A stretch of 59,311 bases of DNA from an uncultured Methanosarcinales archaeon (GTDB lineage Archaea; Nanobdellota; Nanobdellia; Woesearchaeales; JAGWAF01), in the NCBI GenBank assembly GCA_964597775.1, contig CAZQZJ010000003.1, positions 1 through 59,311 on the forward strand, in the 5' to 3' direction. The translations under genes were made by a program, and so were the position numbers. The notes under the pieces were generated by a model that did no database searches, was not told the DNA's origin, and worked only from the letters and a program-made list of their open reading frames with translations. Numbering within the stretch: the first letter of the stretch is position 1; every line of letters starts with the position of its first letter. Below, one piece after another: positions 2,426 through 57,932 of the stretch.

Positions 2426-3664
2426 TTACTCAAGATCACCTATTTTTACCACAGATTCCTTGCCAGTTCTCATATCTCTTATAGTAACAAGACCTTTTGA
2501 AAAATCTCTTGAACCTATCACAATAACCTGTTTTGCACCAATTCCTGATGCAAACGCAAGCTGCTTTCCTAAACTTCGCCCAGCCAATTCCATCTCAACA
2601 CGATGATGCCTTCGCAAACGCACACACAACTTCCATGCATCATTTTTTACTGAATCATCAACTGGGGCAATCACAAACTCAGGTGAAACATCAATTTGTG
2701 GCATAAGATTTTTCTCTTCTAACAAAAGCAAAAGCGTCGAATAGCCAATCGCCATACCTGTTGCTGGCACAGCATCACCTCCAAATACTTTTACCATTTG
2801 ATCATATCTTCCACCACCACAGACTGCTCTAAACTTTTTCTTTGTATCAAAAATCTCAAAAACAGTGCCTGTATAATATGCAAGCCCACGAACAGTTGAA
2901 AGCGAAATCTGTACAAACTCTGACTCCAACAAATCATAGACTGCCTTAAGTTCATTAAACCCTTCTTGCGCAAGCTTATTCTTCTTAATCTTCTCAAGAG
3001 TTTTCATATCCTTAATCTCAAGTAATTTTAATACTTGTTCAGGATTTTTAAGAAATGCAAGCATCTTCCCAAACTCATCTGTGTTGACCTTATCATATTT
3101 ATCAATAATATGAAACACGTCACCCACCTGATTTTTTGATACACAATCCTCTAATAAACCTTGCATTAACTTACGATTGTTGATAAGTACAACAACATCA
3201 CTTCTTTTAAGACCCAACTCTTTGAGTGTTTCAATAGCAACCCCAATAACCTCAGCATCTGCATAAACACTTGATGAACCAAAAACTTCTACACCCATCT
3301 GATAAAACTCTCTTTGCCTACCATGCTGTGGACGCTCATATCTCCACATATTTGTTGCATACGACCACTTTACTGGTTTTTGCAACTCCTTTTGCAACTG
3401 CACAAACATTCGTGTCAGTGGCACAGTAAGATCAAATCTAAGCCCAAAACGCTCATTACCACGCTGTTCTAAAGTAAAGACTTGCTGCTTAATCTCATCT
3501 CCTTCTTTTTCACAAAGAACAGACCATTCTTCAAATGCAGGAGATTCAACCTCACTAAAATTAAATAGTGAGGCAACCCTGCGAAATACAGAGAACACAT
3601 TATTCTTAACTGCTTGCTCACGCGGATAGTAATCAATAGTACCTTTAGGTCTTTGAAACTTCAT
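2426..3664 (-). CDS. hisS: Histidyl-tRNA synthetase
   Basis: RPKGTIDY, LRFDLTVP, WRYERPQHGRQREFYQ, RGLAYYTG and GGGRYD motifs plus the anticodon-binding domain. Confidence 0.97.
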   Translation of the reverse strand: MKFQRPKGTIDYYPREQAVKNNVFSVFRRVASLFNFSEVESPAFEEWSVLCEKEGDEIKQQVFTLEQRGNERFGLRFDLTVPLTRMFVQLQKELQKPVKWSYATNMWRYERPQHGRQREFYQMGVEVFGSSSVYADAEVIGVAIETLKELGLKRSDVVVLINNRKLMQGLLEDCVSKNQVGDVFHIIDKYDKVNTDEFGKMLAFLKNPEQVLKLLEIKDMKTLEKIKKNKLAQEGFNELKAVYDLLESEFVQISLSTVRGLAYYTGTVFEIFDTKKKFRAVCGGGRYDQMVKVFGGDAVPATGMAIGYSTLLLLLEEKNLMPQIDVSPEFVIAPVDDSVKNDAWKLCVRLRRHHRVEMELAGRSLGKQLAFASGIGAKQVIVIGSRDFSKGLVTIRDMRTGKESVVKIGDLE

Positions 3665-3756
3665 GCAACCAGAACACCTTGCACAGTATTTATAAGTTAC
3701 GGGAAAATTAAACTGTGATTACTTTGTCCAAAAAATGACATTATCCATTTTTTTGG

Positions 3757-3884
3757 GGGGTTGTGGTCTAGCTTGGTATGATTCACGGATGGGGTCCGCG
3801 AGATCGGGTGCACCCAAGGTCTTCTACCTTGTGGCACACAAACTCACGAAGTGAGTTTGTTGGGTTCAAATCCTCCCAACCCCA
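3757..3884 (+). tRNA. tRNA-Pro(GGG) with a 54-nt insertion in the T-stem (50/51 or 51/52)
   Basis: Acceptor GGGGTTG/CAACCCC+A73, D-arm GTCT-AGCTTGGTA-TGAT, anticodon arm CACGG-AT-GGG-GT-CCGCG, GGTTCAAATCC T-arm. Removing 3808-3861 gives a 74-nt cloverleaf. Confidence 0.85.
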
Positions 3885-4167
3885 TTTTGAAGGATTTGGA
3901 CCGTCTGGGCTTTGTGGAACGGTTTATAGTCGATAAAGTGAGAAAGAGCGTCATGATGATCGGATTTCAGATTGCGGCCAAATGAGTGTTCTGTCATGGT
4001 TGTTGACCGGACGCGACTTCTCCGCGCTGTTCGGTTGATTCTCTGTTGACTTTTATCGTCGTTGAACTACATACATGTTCCCCTGCCAAACAGGATTTGG
4101 ACCGTTTTCTAGAAGGTTGACATAACCGAAGGCAAATAGGGAAAATTCTCACCCATAAAAATCCAAA

Positions 4168-4593
4168 TCACTTTTTAAGCACGCCCTCAACTGCTTTGAT
4201 AAAATCTTCCGCAGTCTCAATTACATTCTTGGCCTCACCGTAATCTATCCTGATCGGATCAAGACCATAATTGATGGCATGCCTATCAAGGCGAAGTGTA
4301 TTGAGCTCATTCAAAAACCTCAATTCAAGGCGATCGGCATATTGCTCCTTGACATACACGAACAGCGCAAAATGGCTCTTCTCAACATAACCGTCCCGGA
4401 ACAACAAAGACCTCGCGGCATGAAACATGCTTGCGTAGGCATTTGCGACTGCTTCCTCAGGGACTATCTTCAGGACCTTTTTAGCCACCTCAATCTTATG
4501 CCATGCCCTCTCGATCGATTTTGCCGCCTTCTCATTATCCGGGACGTCCCGCCTGAGAAGACCCTTTGCAACACATTGTTTGATGTCCATCAT
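4168..4593 (-). CDS. HEPN domain protein (putative toxin)
   Basis: AYASMFHAARSLL...KSH and Rx4HxxxY-like LRLDRHAINY; overlaps the upstream MNT gene. Confidence 0.85.
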   Translation of the reverse strand: MMDIKQCVAKGLLRRDVPDNEKAAKSIERAWHKIEVAKKVLKIVPEEAVANAYASMFHAARSLLFRDGYVEKSHFALFVYVKEQYADRLELRFLNELNTLRLDRHAINYGLDPIRIDYGEAKNVIETAEDFIKAVEGVLKK

Positions 4594-5138
4594 CTCACCA
4601 CAGGAATCTCTCCATGAATCGCGATGCCTCCAATGACCACGTTATCATAGAACGCCTTGTCGTCACGGGCCTTGACCTTCCATTGCGAAGGCGTGAATTG
4701 CATCCATGACACCTCACGATCCAAGACTTTCTCCGATTTTAGCCCGTTGAAGGAAACATTTGACCGGGAGATAATCACGATATCCACATCGCTGTCGGGC
4801 ATATCTGTTCCGCGCGCCACCGAGCCGAACAAAATGACTGACAATATCGCCGGGTTCTTTTTGAGGAGCTCCTCGATCAAACCAACCTCATGGATTCGCC
4901 CAAGAGACAGGGACGCTTTAAGATGCCGAACCAGAACATTATCTCTGTCCAGTTCACACAGGATCATCCTTCCAAGGGGCGTTCGCTTCACCAACCGATA
5001 ATCAGCCAAATAGTCGACTACGCGCTTAGCCGACGTGAGCCCTACACCCGCTCGCTTAGCTATCACGGTCATCGATTCGGGATGCTTTGTTTGCGACATG
5101 CTTTCAAAAACACGGAAAAGGGCATAAGATCGGATCAT
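4590..5138 (-). CDS. wHTH plus minimal nucleotidyltransferase (MNT) antitoxin
   Basis: SVILFGSVARG...DSDVDIVII MNT motif and N-terminal HTH (IAKRAGVGLTSAKRVV); ATG at 5138 with an SD-like GGTGTGGG. Confidence 0.88.
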   Translation of the reverse strand: MIRSYALFRVFESMSQTKHPESMTVIAKRAGVGLTSAKRVVDYLADYRLVKRTPLGRMILCELDRDNVLVRHLKASLSLGRIHEVGLIEELLKKNPAILSVILFGSVARGTDMPDSDVDIVIISRSNVSFNGLKSEKVLDREVSWMQFTPSQWKVKARDDKAFYDNVVIGGIAIHGEIPVVR

Positions 5139-5183
5139 ACACCCACACCAATGATCCTTCCTTAAATGGTTTTCCATTATTCA

Positions 5184-5203
5184 ATATTCTTTAAAAAGAA
5201 TAT
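5184..5203. promoter_or_regulatory. Palindromic operator candidate upstream of MNT-HEPN
   Basis: ATATTCTTT-AA-AAAGAATAT (9-bp arms) overlaps a TATA-like TTTTTAAA on the minus strand. Confidence 0.45.
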
Positions 5204-5380
5204 ATCTTCTTTTAAAGGCAGATTACTTCCTTTAAAGGTGAATAAGATTACCAGCCTGGCAGATTCCAGACTGTAGGACAAATGCACTGCTCTCCTCCAA
5301 AAATCCATAGAAATGTAACCGAACAGTCCAGAGAACCCCATTTGCACCAAACATAAAAAGAAGTGCCTTATCCTTGATTT

Positions 5381-8047
5381 GTGGGGATGTTTATTGATTA
5401 TTGCGAGGTTAAGAAAAAGGCTGGCCGTTTCTATGCATATCTCTCTTTTCGTGATAAGAATCTCTCCTATGGCCCAGTATTTCTTGAATATCCATCAATA
5501 GTTAAGTGGGGTGCGTATCCTTACAAAAAAGAGTGCTTGTTAACTCATACCTTCTCTGCAATGCATCTTGATGATGATATGGTAAAAAAGGTAGTTGGTT
5601 ATATAAAAGAAGCATATCCAAGCTGGAATCTCGCAGAGAAGAAGAGGCCTTTTCATGTAGTGCAGGTTTCAAATGCACCAATCCATGATGTACTAGGTTT
5701 ACCAGATTGGATAAAATCATTATTTGAACCTGGCCATTATTCAGAGCAACTAAAATGGCAACTTGGTTGGCCAAATCGAAGAGTTGAGATAGATGAGATA
5801 TTACAGAATGCATTGGTGTTGCATCATAAAATTAATACAACATATGATGAGATTCATAAGAAATGTAGGGGCAGAGTAGATAAAATAAGACCTATTATAA
5901 AAGATAATCTTGCTGAGCTTAGTATTTTATTATCTGAGGTTGATATAAAGAATAAAGCTGTTATCGATACTAGAGATCATGTTGTTGATATATATTTAGA
6001 TTCTTGTTCAGGTTTTCGCCTGCTTTGGCAACAATTAACTGCTGATGAAGTAAAAAGATTGCCATGGTGTTTTCTTGACACTGAAAAAAAGTTTTATCAG
6101 TATAAGGAATTAGCAAGTAACTGTATTGTTTCATTGCTATTTAAACAATGCGATGGCTCTCTAATTGGTGAGATACATACAACTGAGAATCCTGCTAAGG
6201 ATGCATTTGCTGTTGCTGCAGGTGAGGTGTCTGCTGATTTTAGTATTCTACGATATGATAATGAGGCTGGTATGGTACAGGGTGTTAGACAGAAAATAAA
6301 AGAGATGAATCCTTATTTATTGATAGGACATAATATTGGATATGATATAAAGGAGTTAAATAATGATAAGAATTTTAGTGTTGGAATAAGAAATACCAAA
6401 CCTGCACGTCGTGGGTTTTTTAGATTTTTAGATAGATTCCTGTGCCAAGGCATGGAGATTGTAGATACGTATGCATTATTTAAATCACGTGATGTGGATT
6501 ATGCGCGTTATACATTAGAACAGGTTGCTGGATTTCAGAAGATTATCAATTATGAAAAACTAATGCAACTTATTGAAGAGGGAATGCAAGGAAGGCGTGA
6601 ATCACTAAATAATGTATTTTCTTATGCTGGCAAGGATGTGCTGGTTTTATACCATATGTTATGCCATGGCCAGGAGGCAAAACATGATATTCTTAGTGAC
6701 TTGGTTGTTGAGTGCAATACATTTGGCAACTCGCTTACTGAGGCTGCTCATAATGTGGCAAGTGTTTCTAAATTAAGAAAGAAAGTTTTTTATGAAGAAA
6801 CTGGTTTATATCGTGATTTATTAATGCCGCTTAATCTGCGTTTAGCCAGAATAGAGGCGGCAAGACATGGAATTGGAGAGTTAGTGCATGAGGGATTGGG
6901 TTTAGACGCTTATCAAGAACGAGGACTTATAAAAAATGTTCAGAAGTTCTATGTAAACATAGAATCTAGTATGCCTCCATTGCTTTACACAAAATGTGAT
7001 ATTATAAGTTATCTTGAGCATACCTGGGGTAAACACGATTCTCGCCGAAAGTTTCGCCTATCCCAAGTCTTGCGTGCCTTTGCTCAAGATGTTTGGATTG
7101 ATTGGTGGTTTTGTATACAAAAAAATAGAAATCTTGAGGATAAGATTAAGGAATGCCAGCCTGAGTTGATGCAGACTTCTCTTGAGAAATTTCGCCAGGA
7201 TAAAGAATGTTATGAATTGTTTAAGAAAAATAATAAAAATAATAAGCGTCAAAATCTTAGATTAGTTGAAGAATATATCAATAATAACCAGATTTGTGCT
7301 GACCCTTTTTTGCTCAAACACATCTTTGAGCTTGCTATAACATCTGATAGTGCAGATCATCGCTTTTTTGGCGAGCATGGCTTCTCAACAAAACAATGGC
7401 ATGAGCGCTTAAAGGGTTCATTGCGTTTTATTCATGAGTGGATTATGCAACATGAGGTTGTGTATTATGATAATCGAATCTTGTTTGTAAATGGCAACCC
7501 TGATATTCCCTGCTATGTTCATCTTATTCCTTTGGGAAATCGTGATGTGTTACGTGGAGAGTATGGCTTATTATATAAGGAACGTGGTTCATATCGTGGT
7601 TTGGAGATTAAGGAGCACCCAACAAAAAATAATTACTTATTTGATATGGAGCAGAATGCTGCCATTACTGATGCACTCTTAGAAAATGATTTTGAAAAGG
7701 CATGTGGGATCTTGTTTAGTGGTGCGCTTGCACTTAAGAATGGCACAATTGAAAAGAAGCTGTTGTTGTATAAAGAAAATGGAGAGGATTTTACCTTTTG
7801 TGGTGTTGATATAACTGGAACAAGGAGTATGTCTATAGAAGAGGTAGGTAATGGTCTTGAGGATTTTCTACCTAATCTAGAATGGTATGCTCATAAGTCG
7901 TTTGGTGTGAGTAAACAGGGTGCTGCCTTTAGCCAGGGACGCCAACTTGCGCCTTTTTTGTTTTGGAATCTTTCAGATAACCAACGGTTGCATATCAAAA
8001 AAAGATTATCACATATCTGGTTTTCGAATCAGCAGTTGCTTTTTTGA
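5381..8047 (+). CDS. Family B DNA polymerase-like protein; exonuclease motifs present, polymerase motifs degenerate
   Basis: ExoI FLDTE, ExoII IGHNIGYD, ExoIII YAGKD. Motif A-like FYVNIESSMPP and motif C-like VVYYDNRILFV lack the canonical DxxSLYP and YGDTDS. Confidence 0.7.
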   Translation: MGMFIDYCEVKKKAGRFYAYLSFRDKNLSYGPVFLEYPSIVKWGAYPYKKECLLTHTFSAMHLDDDMVKKVVGYIKEAYPSWNLAEKKRPFHVVQVSNAPIHDVLGLPDWIKSLFEPGHYSEQLKWQLGWPNRRVEIDEILQNALVLHHKINTTYDEIHKKCRGRVDKIRPIIKDNLAELSILLSEVDIKNKAVIDTRDHVVDIYLDSCSGFRLLWQQLTADEVKRLPWCFLDTEKKFYQYKELASNCIVSLLFKQCDGSLIGEIHTTENPAKDAFAVAAGEVSADFSILRYDNEAGMVQGVRQKIKEMNPYLLIGHNIGYDIKELNNDKNFSVGIRNTKPARRGFFRFLDRFLCQGMEIVDTYALFKSRDVDYARYTLEQVAGFQKIINYEKLMQLIEEGMQGRRESLNNVFSYAGKDVLVLYHMLCHGQEAKHDILSDLVVECNTFGNSLTEAAHNVASVSKLRKKVFYEETGLYRDLLMPLNLRLARIEAARHGIGELVHEGLGLDAYQERGLIKNVQKFYVNIESSMPPLLYTKCDIISYLEHTWGKHDSRRKFRLSQVLRAFAQDVWIDWWFCIQKNRNLEDKIKECQPELMQTSLEKFRQDKECYELFKKNNKNNKRQNLRLVEEYINNNQICADPFLLKHIFELAITSDSADHRFFGEHGFSTKQWHERLKGSLRFIHEWIMQHEVVYYDNRILFVNGNPDIPCYVHLIPLGNRDVLRGEYGLLYKERGSYRGLEIKEHPTKNNYLFDMEQNAAITDALLENDFEKACGILFSGALALKNGTIEKKLLLYKENGEDFTFCGVDITGTRSMSIEEVGNGLEDFLPNLEWYAHKSFGVSKQGAAFSQGRQLAPFLFWNLSDNQRLHIKKRLSHIWFSNQQLLF

Positions 8048-8132
8048 TTTTTCAAAATCTTTGGTGGTCAAGGAATCTTGGATAGAGTCCTAGTAGGATT
8101 AGCTTTAATAAGTTCTAGGAATTGGTAGGTGT

Positions 8133-8381
8133 GTGGCACAAGGTAATCAGAATAATAGGTATACAGCACAAGGTAATAATGATCCGTTGTATCGAAAGCG
8201 TTTTTATGCATCTCAGTTAAGGCTTTCATTGGCTGCCTTGGTTGGTGGTGTTGGTATTTCCTATGCAGCTATGAATGGGTATGTTCGTGATTCGTATAAA
8301 CCTTCTCTGGTTACTGATCTTGGTGTTGCTGTGGCTGCTGCTGGTTTGGCTGGTGTGTTGTATAATGTTAAGCGTGAGTAG
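8133..8381 (+). CDS. Small membrane protein
   Basis: 82 aa, GTG start, two hydrophobic segments, short N-terminal duplication AQGNQN/AQGNND. Confidence 0.55.
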   Translation: MAQGNQNNRYTAQGNNDPLYRKRFYASQLRLSLAALVGGVGISYAAMNGYVRDSYKPSLVTDLGVAVAAAGLAGVLYNVKRE

Positions 8382-8706
8382 TTGATGGTTGTTGGTGTTG
8401 TGTTTTAGCCCATTCCTGTACTTCTTGTGATCCATGAATATTTGCTTCTGACCCGAGGGAGTAGTAGGTTTTTTTGACAATTCCCCCCCAAGAAAATTCT
8501 CCTTGTTCTTGCCGTACTTCAGTGATAATAAATTCGCCAAGACTTACTCCTTTGTGCAAATGGTAATAAATAGATTCTCGCGTGCATGGTGTGAAGATAG
8601 TGATATAGATTTTATGAATTTCGTAGCCATATGCTTTGTGAACAACTGCTAGTATTTCTGCAATGCGTTGTCGAATCTCTGATCCTACTGGTCTGCCAGG
8701 TTTCAT
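8368..8706 (-). CDS. Winged-helix-like hypothetical protein
   Basis: EIRQRIAEIL...YGYEIHKIY...SIYYHL...KTYYSLG resembles PadR-like wHTH; ATG at 8706. Confidence 0.6.
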   Translation of the reverse strand: MKPGRPVGSEIRQRIAEILAVVHKAYGYEIHKIYITIFTPCTRESIYYHLHKGVSLGEFIITEVRQEQGEFSWGGIVKKTYYSLGSEANIHGSQEVQEWAKTQHQQPSTTHA

Positions 8707-8761
8707 GTGTTTCGCATGTGATCCTTTTATAGATAGCTTTTTATAACTTTGGTAATAGATT

Positions 8762-9487
8762 GTGACTATGAACAAGAAGTTTGGTTTGGTTGCACCAAGA
8801 TTTAAACATGTTATTCTGGCTATATCTATTGCAATTGTGTTGGCATTTTTTGTGAATTATACTCTTACAGTTTTGTATCATGAGCCAGAGTATGATGAAT
8901 TTTGTTCAAGTGAATATCATGAGTATACTGATCGTGCGTCATGCGAGGCTAGCGATGGCAAGTGGTATGACGCTGGGAAGAGTAGGCCTGTTGATTTTTC
9001 TGGTCATGTGAAACCTGGTGTTGAGGTAAGGGATTGTCCTGGTCTTTGCAAGGTTGTTCTTGAGCAGGATGTTTGTAATCAAGCAAATATAACATCTTGC
9101 ATATTTTCAAATGTTGTATTTGAGAATGAATGTATGCAATATGGAGGGATTTTTTTTCCTTCAAAACAATGTCCTACTTCAATAAGTATGTTTAGGGGTC
9201 ATTGTGATGCATATTATACATGCAATTTAAAATTGCAGCAGGCCACTAACTTGTATCGCAGAAATGTTTTTCTTACACAGATTATGATTGGTGGATTGCT
9301 TATGGTTGCAGGTATTGCATTAGCTCTTCCTGCAGTAAGTGGTGGTATAATGAGCGGGGCTGTGATTACTCTTTTTGTTGGATTGGTTGGGTATTGGGAT
9401 ATACTTGATAAGTGGGTGCGTATCAGCATTCTCGGGTTGATTTTAGTGGTGTTGATCTGGCTTGGATATAAGAAACTGCAAAAGTAA
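8762..9487 (+). CDS. Membrane protein with a Cys-rich extracellular loop
   Basis: N-terminal TM, loop with about 11 Cys, four C-terminal TM segments. Confidence 0.75.
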   Translation: MTMNKKFGLVAPRFKHVILAISIAIVLAFFVNYTLTVLYHEPEYDEFCSSEYHEYTDRASCEASDGKWYDAGKSRPVDFSGHVKPGVEVRDCPGLCKVVLEQDVCNQANITSCIFSNVVFENECMQYGGIFFPSKQCPTSISMFRGHCDAYYTCNLKLQQATNLYRRNVFLTQIMIGGLLMVAGIALALPAVSGGIMSGAVITLFVGLVGYWDILDKWVRISILGLILVVLIWLGYKKLQK

Positions 9488-57776: not shown

Positions 57777-57932
57777 GGGGCTGTAGTATAACTTGGCTAG
57801 AATAGGTGGCTCCAGTCATGGAGCGATGAGCTGCAGTAATCTGTAGCAATGAAATAAACCTATGGTCTGTTGAAGCCTTTGCTTCAAGGAAGAGACCACC
57901 GGATCAGGGTTCAAATCCCTGCAGCCCCACCA
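57777..57932 (+). tRNA. tRNA-Trp(CCA) with a canonical 37/38 intron (57816-57894) and encoded CCA
   Basis: GGGGCTG/CAGCCCC-A-CCA; anticodon stem GGTGG/CCACC; BHB with central helix CTCC/GAAG (one mismatch) and intron stem CATGGAGC/GCTTCAAG; TTTATAAA about 30 nt upstream. Confidence 0.95.
57816..57894 (+). ncRNA. Intron-encoded box C/D-like guide RNA (putative Cm34/Cm39)
   Basis: TGGAGC-g-ATGA and TGGTCT-g-TTGA: antisense elements place C34 and C39 opposite the fifth nt upstream of D-like boxes. Confidence 0.55.

Follow-up and report, generated by a model that had tools for sequence, protein, structure and literature searches.

The window, the whole 59,311-nt stretch of DNA analysed here, carries a tRNA-Pro(GGG) gene at 3757-3884 (+) that, as read directly off the sequence, is split by a 54-nt insertion. 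Its divergent neighbor is hisS (2426..3664, -), encoding a histidyl-tRNA synthetase recognized by its Pfam domains and Woesearchaeota-named homologues, which served as synteny anchor. The best named homologues of this HisS belong to Candidatus Woesearchaeota, the closest non-self protein is 55% identical, and the same protein is encoded on contigs from Hainich groundwater well H51 (ERZ1292641, ERZ1292639 and Logan contigs of ERR3858132). The G+C content of the window is ~38%, and the other genes scanned in it are ordinary chromosomal ones, among them those for PPDK, GAPDH, a 2-oxoacid dehydrogenase complex, RsmB and Elp3. These features identify the host as a DPANN archaeon (Woesearchaeota) without a close sequenced relative. 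The only tRNA genes within the window are those for tRNA-Pro(GGG), tRNA-Val and tRNA-Trp.

Exon 1 of the tRNA-Pro gene (3757..3807, or ..3808 in the alternative register, +; tRNA positions 1-50) was delimited with ARAGORN on the spliced sequence and with the relatives described below. It comprises the 5' strand of the acceptor stem, the D arm, the anticodon arm with the anticodon GGG at 3791..3793 (+) in the cloverleaf, the variable loop AGAUC and the first GG of the T stem. Exon 2 (3862..3884, +; tRNA positions 51-73), whose T arm recurs in the relatives, contributes the T-stem GGG, the T loop UUCAAAU, CCUCC, the acceptor 3' strand CAACCCC and the discriminator A; no CCA is encoded at the 3' end. 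The insertion between them occupies 3808..3861 (+; between tRNA positions 50 and 51, pre-tRNA 52-105) or 3809-3862 (between 51 and 52, pre-tRNA 53-106), and thus falls after position 50 or 51, within the T stem's 5' strand. With GGG at both junctions the two registers cannot be told apart, and removal of the 54 nt in either one leaves the same 74-nt product. ARAGORN calls this product tRNA-Pro(ggg) with a full cloverleaf and the T arm TCGGGGGTTCAAATCCTCC. Its only blemishes are the conserved G.U in the T stem and an A.C mismatch at anticodon-stem pair 28:42 (A at 3785, C at 3799, +). An initial annotation had recognized an archaeal tRNA-Pro(GGG), placed a 54-nt insertion after position 50 or 51 and proposed the junction GATCGG|GGGTTC; the ARAGORN call bears out the identity, exact deletion yields the 74-nt cloverleaf, and the junction equals the T arm of uninterrupted relatives. 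An A/T-rich box, CCAAAAAATGAC (3728..3739, +), was read from the sequence 18-29 nt upstream of the gene. It aligns with TTTAAATGAC, located at a like distance upstream of the L127 orthologue, and is a possible archaeal promoter.

The interrupted gene is easily overlooked. ARAGORN misses it under default settings and, with introns allowed, miscalls it as 'tRNA-Pyl'. Against the Rfam tRNA model the unspliced gene scores 21.7 bits, under the 29-bit gathering score, and the alignment is wrong, the anticodon arm being swallowed by it. Woesearchaeota orthologues without an interruption reach 51-55 bits. The interrupted T stem, the A28.C42 mismatch and a model score below that of the orthologues are what a pseudogene would be expected to display.

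Almost the entire insertion is taken up by two hairpins that are unrelated to each other in sequence, U3861 being the sole base outside both. Hairpin 1 (HP1; 3808..3837, +; pair probabilities 0.90-0.98 in the predicted folds) has a 4-bp GUGC/GCAC base, a bulged A, a C-G pair, a C.U mismatch and a 6-bp top, CAAGGU-CUUCU-ACCUUG, and so includes 11 Watson-Crick pairs and a CUUCU loop. Hairpin 2 (HP2; 3838..3860, +; pair probabilities 0.87-1.0) is a perfect 10-bp stem with a GAA triloop, ACAAACUCAC-GAA-GUGAGUUUGU, closed in the context C(GAA)G. Folded alone, the insertion reaches -25 kcal/mol versus -11.3 +/- 2.7 in shuffled sequences (z -5.2), a value matched by 0 of 200 shuffles, and in the ensemble of the full precursor the stems of both hairpins keep probabilities of 0.87-1.0. 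All 21 stem pairs are Watson-Crick and none is G-U, so the complementary DNA strand folds equally well, as was also computed. Such stems, together with the C(GAA)G loop, would fit a palindrome that arose at the DNA level. When the hairpins are drawn together with the cloverleaf, the bottom of the T stem, HP1, HP2 and the top of the T stem form a four-way junction, with the splice junctions at the points of strand exchange. This structure has -40.6 kcal/mol, compared with -50.7 kcal/mol for the minimum free energy (MFE) fold of the full precursor, and the split T stem barely forms in the ensemble (pair probabilities 0.001-0.15).

Splicing signals were scored against the bulge-helix-bulge (BHB) geometry, in which helix H pairs exon p-5..p-2 with intron q-5..q-2, the bulges are p-1, p | p+1 and q-1, q | q+1, and h and h' are the outer helices, giving a 12-pair score over H, h and h'. 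A Thermoproteales variable-loop intron (L041; p=45, q=83), used as positive control, scored 11/12. The 79-nt intron of tRNA-Trp on the same contig (p=39, q=118) scored 10/12, all pairs being Watson-Crick with one C.A mismatch in H. The tRNA-Pro junctions reached 5/12 in register 51/105 (H 1/4, no outer helix h) and 8/12 in register 52/106, which has only four Watson-Crick pairs, an H of 3/4 that includes two G-U pairs, and no outer helix h. This better register is equalled by 3.4% of shuffled insertions; forcing its pairing costs 30 kcal/mol (-20.7 versus -50.7), and its pairs have an ensemble probability of 0.0 in the precursor.

Nor did wider searches of the tRNA-Pro precursor recover a usable motif. 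No product-compatible one-step register fits the strict hBHBh' form with 3-nt bulges and a 4-bp helix. The relaxed forms HBh', hBH and BHL, with bulges of 1-4 nt and variable helix lengths, gave only mostly G-U helices of 3-4 bp. Two-step excision of adjacent or nested introns, considered on account of the tRNA-Pro(GGG) of ARMAN-2, gave no acceptable pair of motifs. The sole complete BHB in the region (p=64, q=105) was rejected, as it leaves 13 nt behind and breaks the T stem of the product; from pair frequencies we estimate that about one such candidate is expected by chance. Opening of the terminal A-U pair of HP2 would leave a 4-bp Watson-Crick helix (C83-A86/U100-G103) ending 2 nt before the 3' junction, U3861|G3862. 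Only this site can be drawn in such a position, and the strand opposite its helix is a junction and not a continuous helix. Among the ORFs scanned with Pfam in the window, itself only 59 kb long, there was no EndA and no RtcB-type ligase.

Five Woesearchaeota tRNA-Pro(GGG) genes were recovered for comparison, three (L075, L105 and L111) from a broad scan of genome contigs that was otherwise flooded by bacterial tRNA-Pro, and two (L125 and L127) by fetching the contigs of hisS homologues. All five are uninterrupted. Their D and T arms are identical or near-identical to those of the window gene, and their T arm, TCGGGGGTTC(A/G)AATCCTCC, is the junction predicted for it. The gene adjoins hisS in two of the nine hisS-homologue contigs, in both cases as an uninterrupted copy. 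In L127, whose hisS is 53% identical to that of the window, the tRNA gene (1965-2038, -) is divergent from hisS, as in the window, with a 272-nt spacer; in L125 (55% identical) the tRNA gene (1-70, +) and hisS are in tandem, so that linkage is kept and orientation is not. Five further hisS contigs (L126, L128-L131) have no tRNA nearby. The shared hisS neighborhood and T arm identify the window gene as the syntenic orthologue, and the insertion is, judging from these sequence comparisons, a lineage-specific gain. A metagenome scan with the same D-arm and T-arm anchors and 16-76 extra nt between them returned one unrelated match and no true case. When the precursor was aligned to these genes in MAFFT, the gap fell in the wrong place, and that alignment was discarded.

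The relatives also bear on the anticodon stem. Pair 28:42 is G-C in the hisS-linked orthologues L127 and L125, A-U in L075, L105 and L111, and A.C in the window gene. The A28.C42 combination (3785/3799) is an unpaired intermediate between the G-C and A-U states of the relatives.

These results partly support the initial annotation. Folding confirmed both of the hairpins it had drawn, CAAGGT-CTTCT-ACCTTG and one with a GAA loop. It had reported that no convincing BHB could be built, and the same outcome was reached here with a test that does recover the tRNA-Trp and L041 introns. It had named a standard BHB along with the same intron in relatives as grounds for a different view; no such BHB was found, and the relatives recovered lack the insertion.

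The reading that we favor, tentatively, is that a recent, lineage-specific insertion of palindromic DNA has disabled or crippled a dispensable tRNA-Pro(GGG) isoacceptor, and that the inserted sequence is not a BHB intron. A 54-bp double palindrome would have entered the T stem of the chromosomal gene at the DNA level. In the transcript, both hairpins would fold at once and very stably, splitting the T stem into 2 + 3 bp around a four-way junction. As neither junction lies in a bulge beside a 4-bp helix, EndA would have nothing to hold. Most likely no normal 74-nt tRNA would result, and the gene would be disabled or badly impaired, a young pseudogene. The failed motif tests, the hairpin-dominated fold, the Watson-Crick stems, the second lesion and the five uninterrupted relatives together give weight to a disabled gene. 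The initial annotation had placed a relaxed-motif intron, a retained insertion and a knock-out side by side; all three are still considered here, with the evidence shifting weight toward a knock-out caused by a DNA-level palindrome.

Loss of the isoacceptor could be tolerable since the four CCN codons can all be read by tRNA-Pro(UGG), as they are by a single UGG tRNA in Salmonella, Mycoplasma and organelles. The median number of tRNAs detected in complete Nanobdellota genomes is only 35 (bioRxiv 10.64898/2026.05.13.725050), which indicates that reduced isoacceptor sets are common in this phylum. Against such compensation, an Elp3 homologue is encoded on the contig and could limit wobble if it modifies U34 of tRNA-Pro(UGG).

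Several observations count against a disabled gene. Beyond the insertion and a single mismatch the gene is intact: it has all conserved tRNA elements, clean flanks and its upstream A/T-rich box. A tRNA with G34 would also be useful: proline codons in ORFs of at least 250 aa number 296 CCA, 248 CCT, 32 CCG and 31 CCC, so CCU and CCC, which G34 tRNA reads under standard decoding, account for 46%. Disrupted tRNA genes and endonucleases of broad specificity are, furthermore, a known feature of DPANN archaea (PMC5829648). The insertion also appears fixed in every assembly examined.

The same observations lend themselves to a second reading, which we regard as a serious though somewhat less likely rival: the insertion would be a genuine, recently gained non-canonical intron at 50/51 that is excised and ligated to give a normal tRNA-Pro(GGG). 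Excision would fall to the EndA of the lineage with very relaxed or junction-type recognition, or to another nuclease, and RtcB would join the ends. As expected of an intron, deletion of the 54 nt restores a canonical tRNA with a T arm identical to that of the five relatives. The remaining gene is intact and the codons that call for a G34 reader are frequent. The BHB intron of tRNA-Trp on the same contig implies that the host has splicing machinery. In DPANN lineages, alpha4 EndAs with an additional L3 loop occur together with numerous disrupted tRNA genes, and further such genes are expected to have escaped detection (PMC5829648). The locus shares with archaeal BHB introns an intervening sequence in the T arm of a DPANN tRNA-Pro(GGG) whose removal restores the cloverleaf; in ARMAN-2, this tRNA has two T-loop introns with strict BHBs (PMC3239211). 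The T-arm introns of the Guillardia theta nucleomorph, which are removed without a known motif, likewise lie in otherwise normal tRNAs and lack an evident BHB (PMC4090602). However, those are eukaryotic introns of 3-24 nt whose excision was shown by RT-PCR, whereas the window insertion is 54 nt long, strongly structured and known from its sequence. The position of the 3' junction 2 nt after a 4-bp helix, if the end of HP2 opens, and the 8/12 score of register 52/106 are the nearest approach to a signal.

Weighing against an intron, the insertion has neither the 3-4-3 motif of archaeal BHB introns nor a relaxed half-motif: hBHBh', HBh', hBH and BHL fit no register in one or two steps, and the only full BHB candidate is at chance level with its 13-nt remainder. 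Relaxed EndA substrates keep at least one bulge beside a 4-bp helix (PMC3239211; PMC12397907), whereas here the splice points sit where the helices of a four-way junction end. Against the perfect 10-bp hairpin, the candidate central helix has an ensemble probability of 0.0, and exon-intron pairing is out-competed by the hairpins of the insertion itself. A published list of archaeal intron sites gives 20/21, 22/23, 25/26, 29/30, 30/31, 45/46, 53/54, 56/57, 59/60 'etc.' and does not name 50/51 (PMC4090602). An intron, moreover, is shared with none of the recovered relatives and leaves the A28.C42 mismatch without explanation.

A more specific form of the intron reading, which we consider improbable, dispenses with the BHB altogether. 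An endonuclease, either a DPANN enzyme or another one, would read the four-way junction and cut at G3807|G3808 and U3861|G3862. Recognition of a junction in place of a BHB would be a new mode in archaeal tRNA splicing. Splicing of this insertion by whatever route would make it an archaeal tRNA intron without a bulge-helix-bulge, break the rule behind tRNAscan-SE, SPLITS and all EndA structural models, and help to explain the apparent missing tRNAs in many DPANN genomes. If instead the insertion is unspliced, a perfect cloverleaf after removal would be insufficient for calling an intron, and the disabled gene would be a snapshot of isoacceptor loss in a streamlined symbiont genome via a small palindromic insertion.

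Slightly less probable still is a working tRNA that keeps the insertion, its T stem closing around the four-way junction and the stacked hairpins projecting as an extra arm of a molecule that is charged and used. In its favor, the insertion leaves only one base unpaired and starts and ends exactly at helix ends, and the four-way junction with a continuous T stem can be drawn at -40.6 kcal/mol. The long variable arms of class II tRNAs (Leu, Ser) are a comparable structured arm off the tRNA core; they emerge near positions 44-48, two nucleotides from the exit point of the insertion. Unlike them, the insertion lies inside the T stem (after position 50) and has two hairpins, not one, and the relatives have a 5-nt variable loop. 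The required fold is 10 kcal/mol above the MFE, with the very low split T-stem pair probabilities given above, and the relatives do without any such arm. Elongation factor, RNase P and the ribosome, moreover, all make contact with the T stem, and no cellular tRNA that has an arm within this stem is known to us.

An assembly artefact, be it a hairpin chimera, adapter-derived sequence or a larger element collapsed between the hairpins, is very unlikely, since exactly the same 128 nt are found in the 59-kb window contig and in contigs that metaSPAdes built from two replicate samples, and both halves of the locus are present with unchanged sequence in Logan contigs of a third run (ERR3858132). The suspicion arises because both of these Logan contigs, L003 (1-180) and L133 (2100-2262), stop inside the insertion. 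They overlap by 9 nt only (TGGCACACA), at the joint of HP1 and HP2, and k-mers spanning the joint are absent in ERR3858132; a coverage dip at the hairpins or heterogeneity may be the cause. The 5' junction, in addition, includes AGATCGG, the 7 nt with which Illumina adapters begin. We regard this stretch as native because the tRNAs of relatives have GATCGG or GGTCGG here. Compared with adapter sequences, the insertion is similar at chance level only, and an adapter chimera was rejected.

Turning to the origin of the insertion, it resembles REP/PATE-type hairpins or MITE-like disruptions in being made of perfect palindromes on both strands, inserted cleanly and specific to one lineage, next to a second stem lesion. 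It differs from them in lacking another copy in 59 kb and terminal inverted repeats and in consisting of two unrelated hairpins. A search of the 59-kb window with up to three mismatches found no second copy of either hairpin. The ends of the insertion (GTGCACCC... and ...GTTTGTT) do not form an inverted repeat, and a target-site duplication would amount to a single G at most. Given no second copy, no terminal repeats and no target duplication, the insertion is not classified as a mobile hairpin element. The hairpins have no match in viral contigs or in phage and plasmid collections, and the six neighboring ORFs scanned have no integrase or PHROG matches. An integrated element that had duplicated the 3' end of the tRNA as an att site was rejected, as the window holds no second copy of exon 2 or the tRNA 3' end. 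Rfam returned only the tRNA and two chance-level matches (E > 4) for 3700-3950, with no ribozyme or sRNA family, and neither C/D boxes nor an H/ACA pocket were seen by eye.

The region 3' of the tRNA-Pro gene has features of its own. An exact 14-nt direct repeat, AGGATTTGGACCGT, lies just 3' of the gene at 3891-3904 and again at 4092-4105, 201 nt apart. Its minus-strand reading, GGTCCAAATCC, is one mismatch off a T-loop motif; no tRNA model matches it, and recombination at tRNA-like sites might have left it behind. A HEPN/minimal nucleotidyltransferase (MNT) pair is encoded directly downstream of the tRNA gene (4168-5177, -). It is followed by an 888-aa ORF (5381-8047, +) with a sub-threshold match to a family-B polymerase (PolB) exonuclease and no PHROG or NCBIfam match; the other ORFs scanned within 4168-9487 have no family match. 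The G+C content is 0.43 at 4-6 kb and ~0.37 around it. At 8126-8177, a 22-nt direct repeat spaced by 30 nt (TAGGTGTGTGGCACAAGGTAAT / TAGGTATACAGCACAAGGTAAT) extends over the start of a small ORF, and the shared GCACAAGGTAAT encodes a recurring AQGN motif. A 15/16 inverted match between 3825-3840 and 8130-8145 lies within this coding AQGN repeat and was rejected as chance level (7 of 100 shuffles).

The tRNA-Trp(CCA) gene at the other end of the window (57777-57932, +) has an encoded CCA and a near-canonical BHB around its 79-nt intron at 37/38 (57816-57894). Default ARAGORN misses this gene too. According to a preprint, tRNA-Trp is 'missing' in 30 of 123 complete Woesearchaeales genomes, and long introns like this one may lie behind such reports. 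The intron shows C/D-box-like spacing, with GAUGAG, 12 nt, CUGU, AAUGAAA, 12 nt and CUGU.
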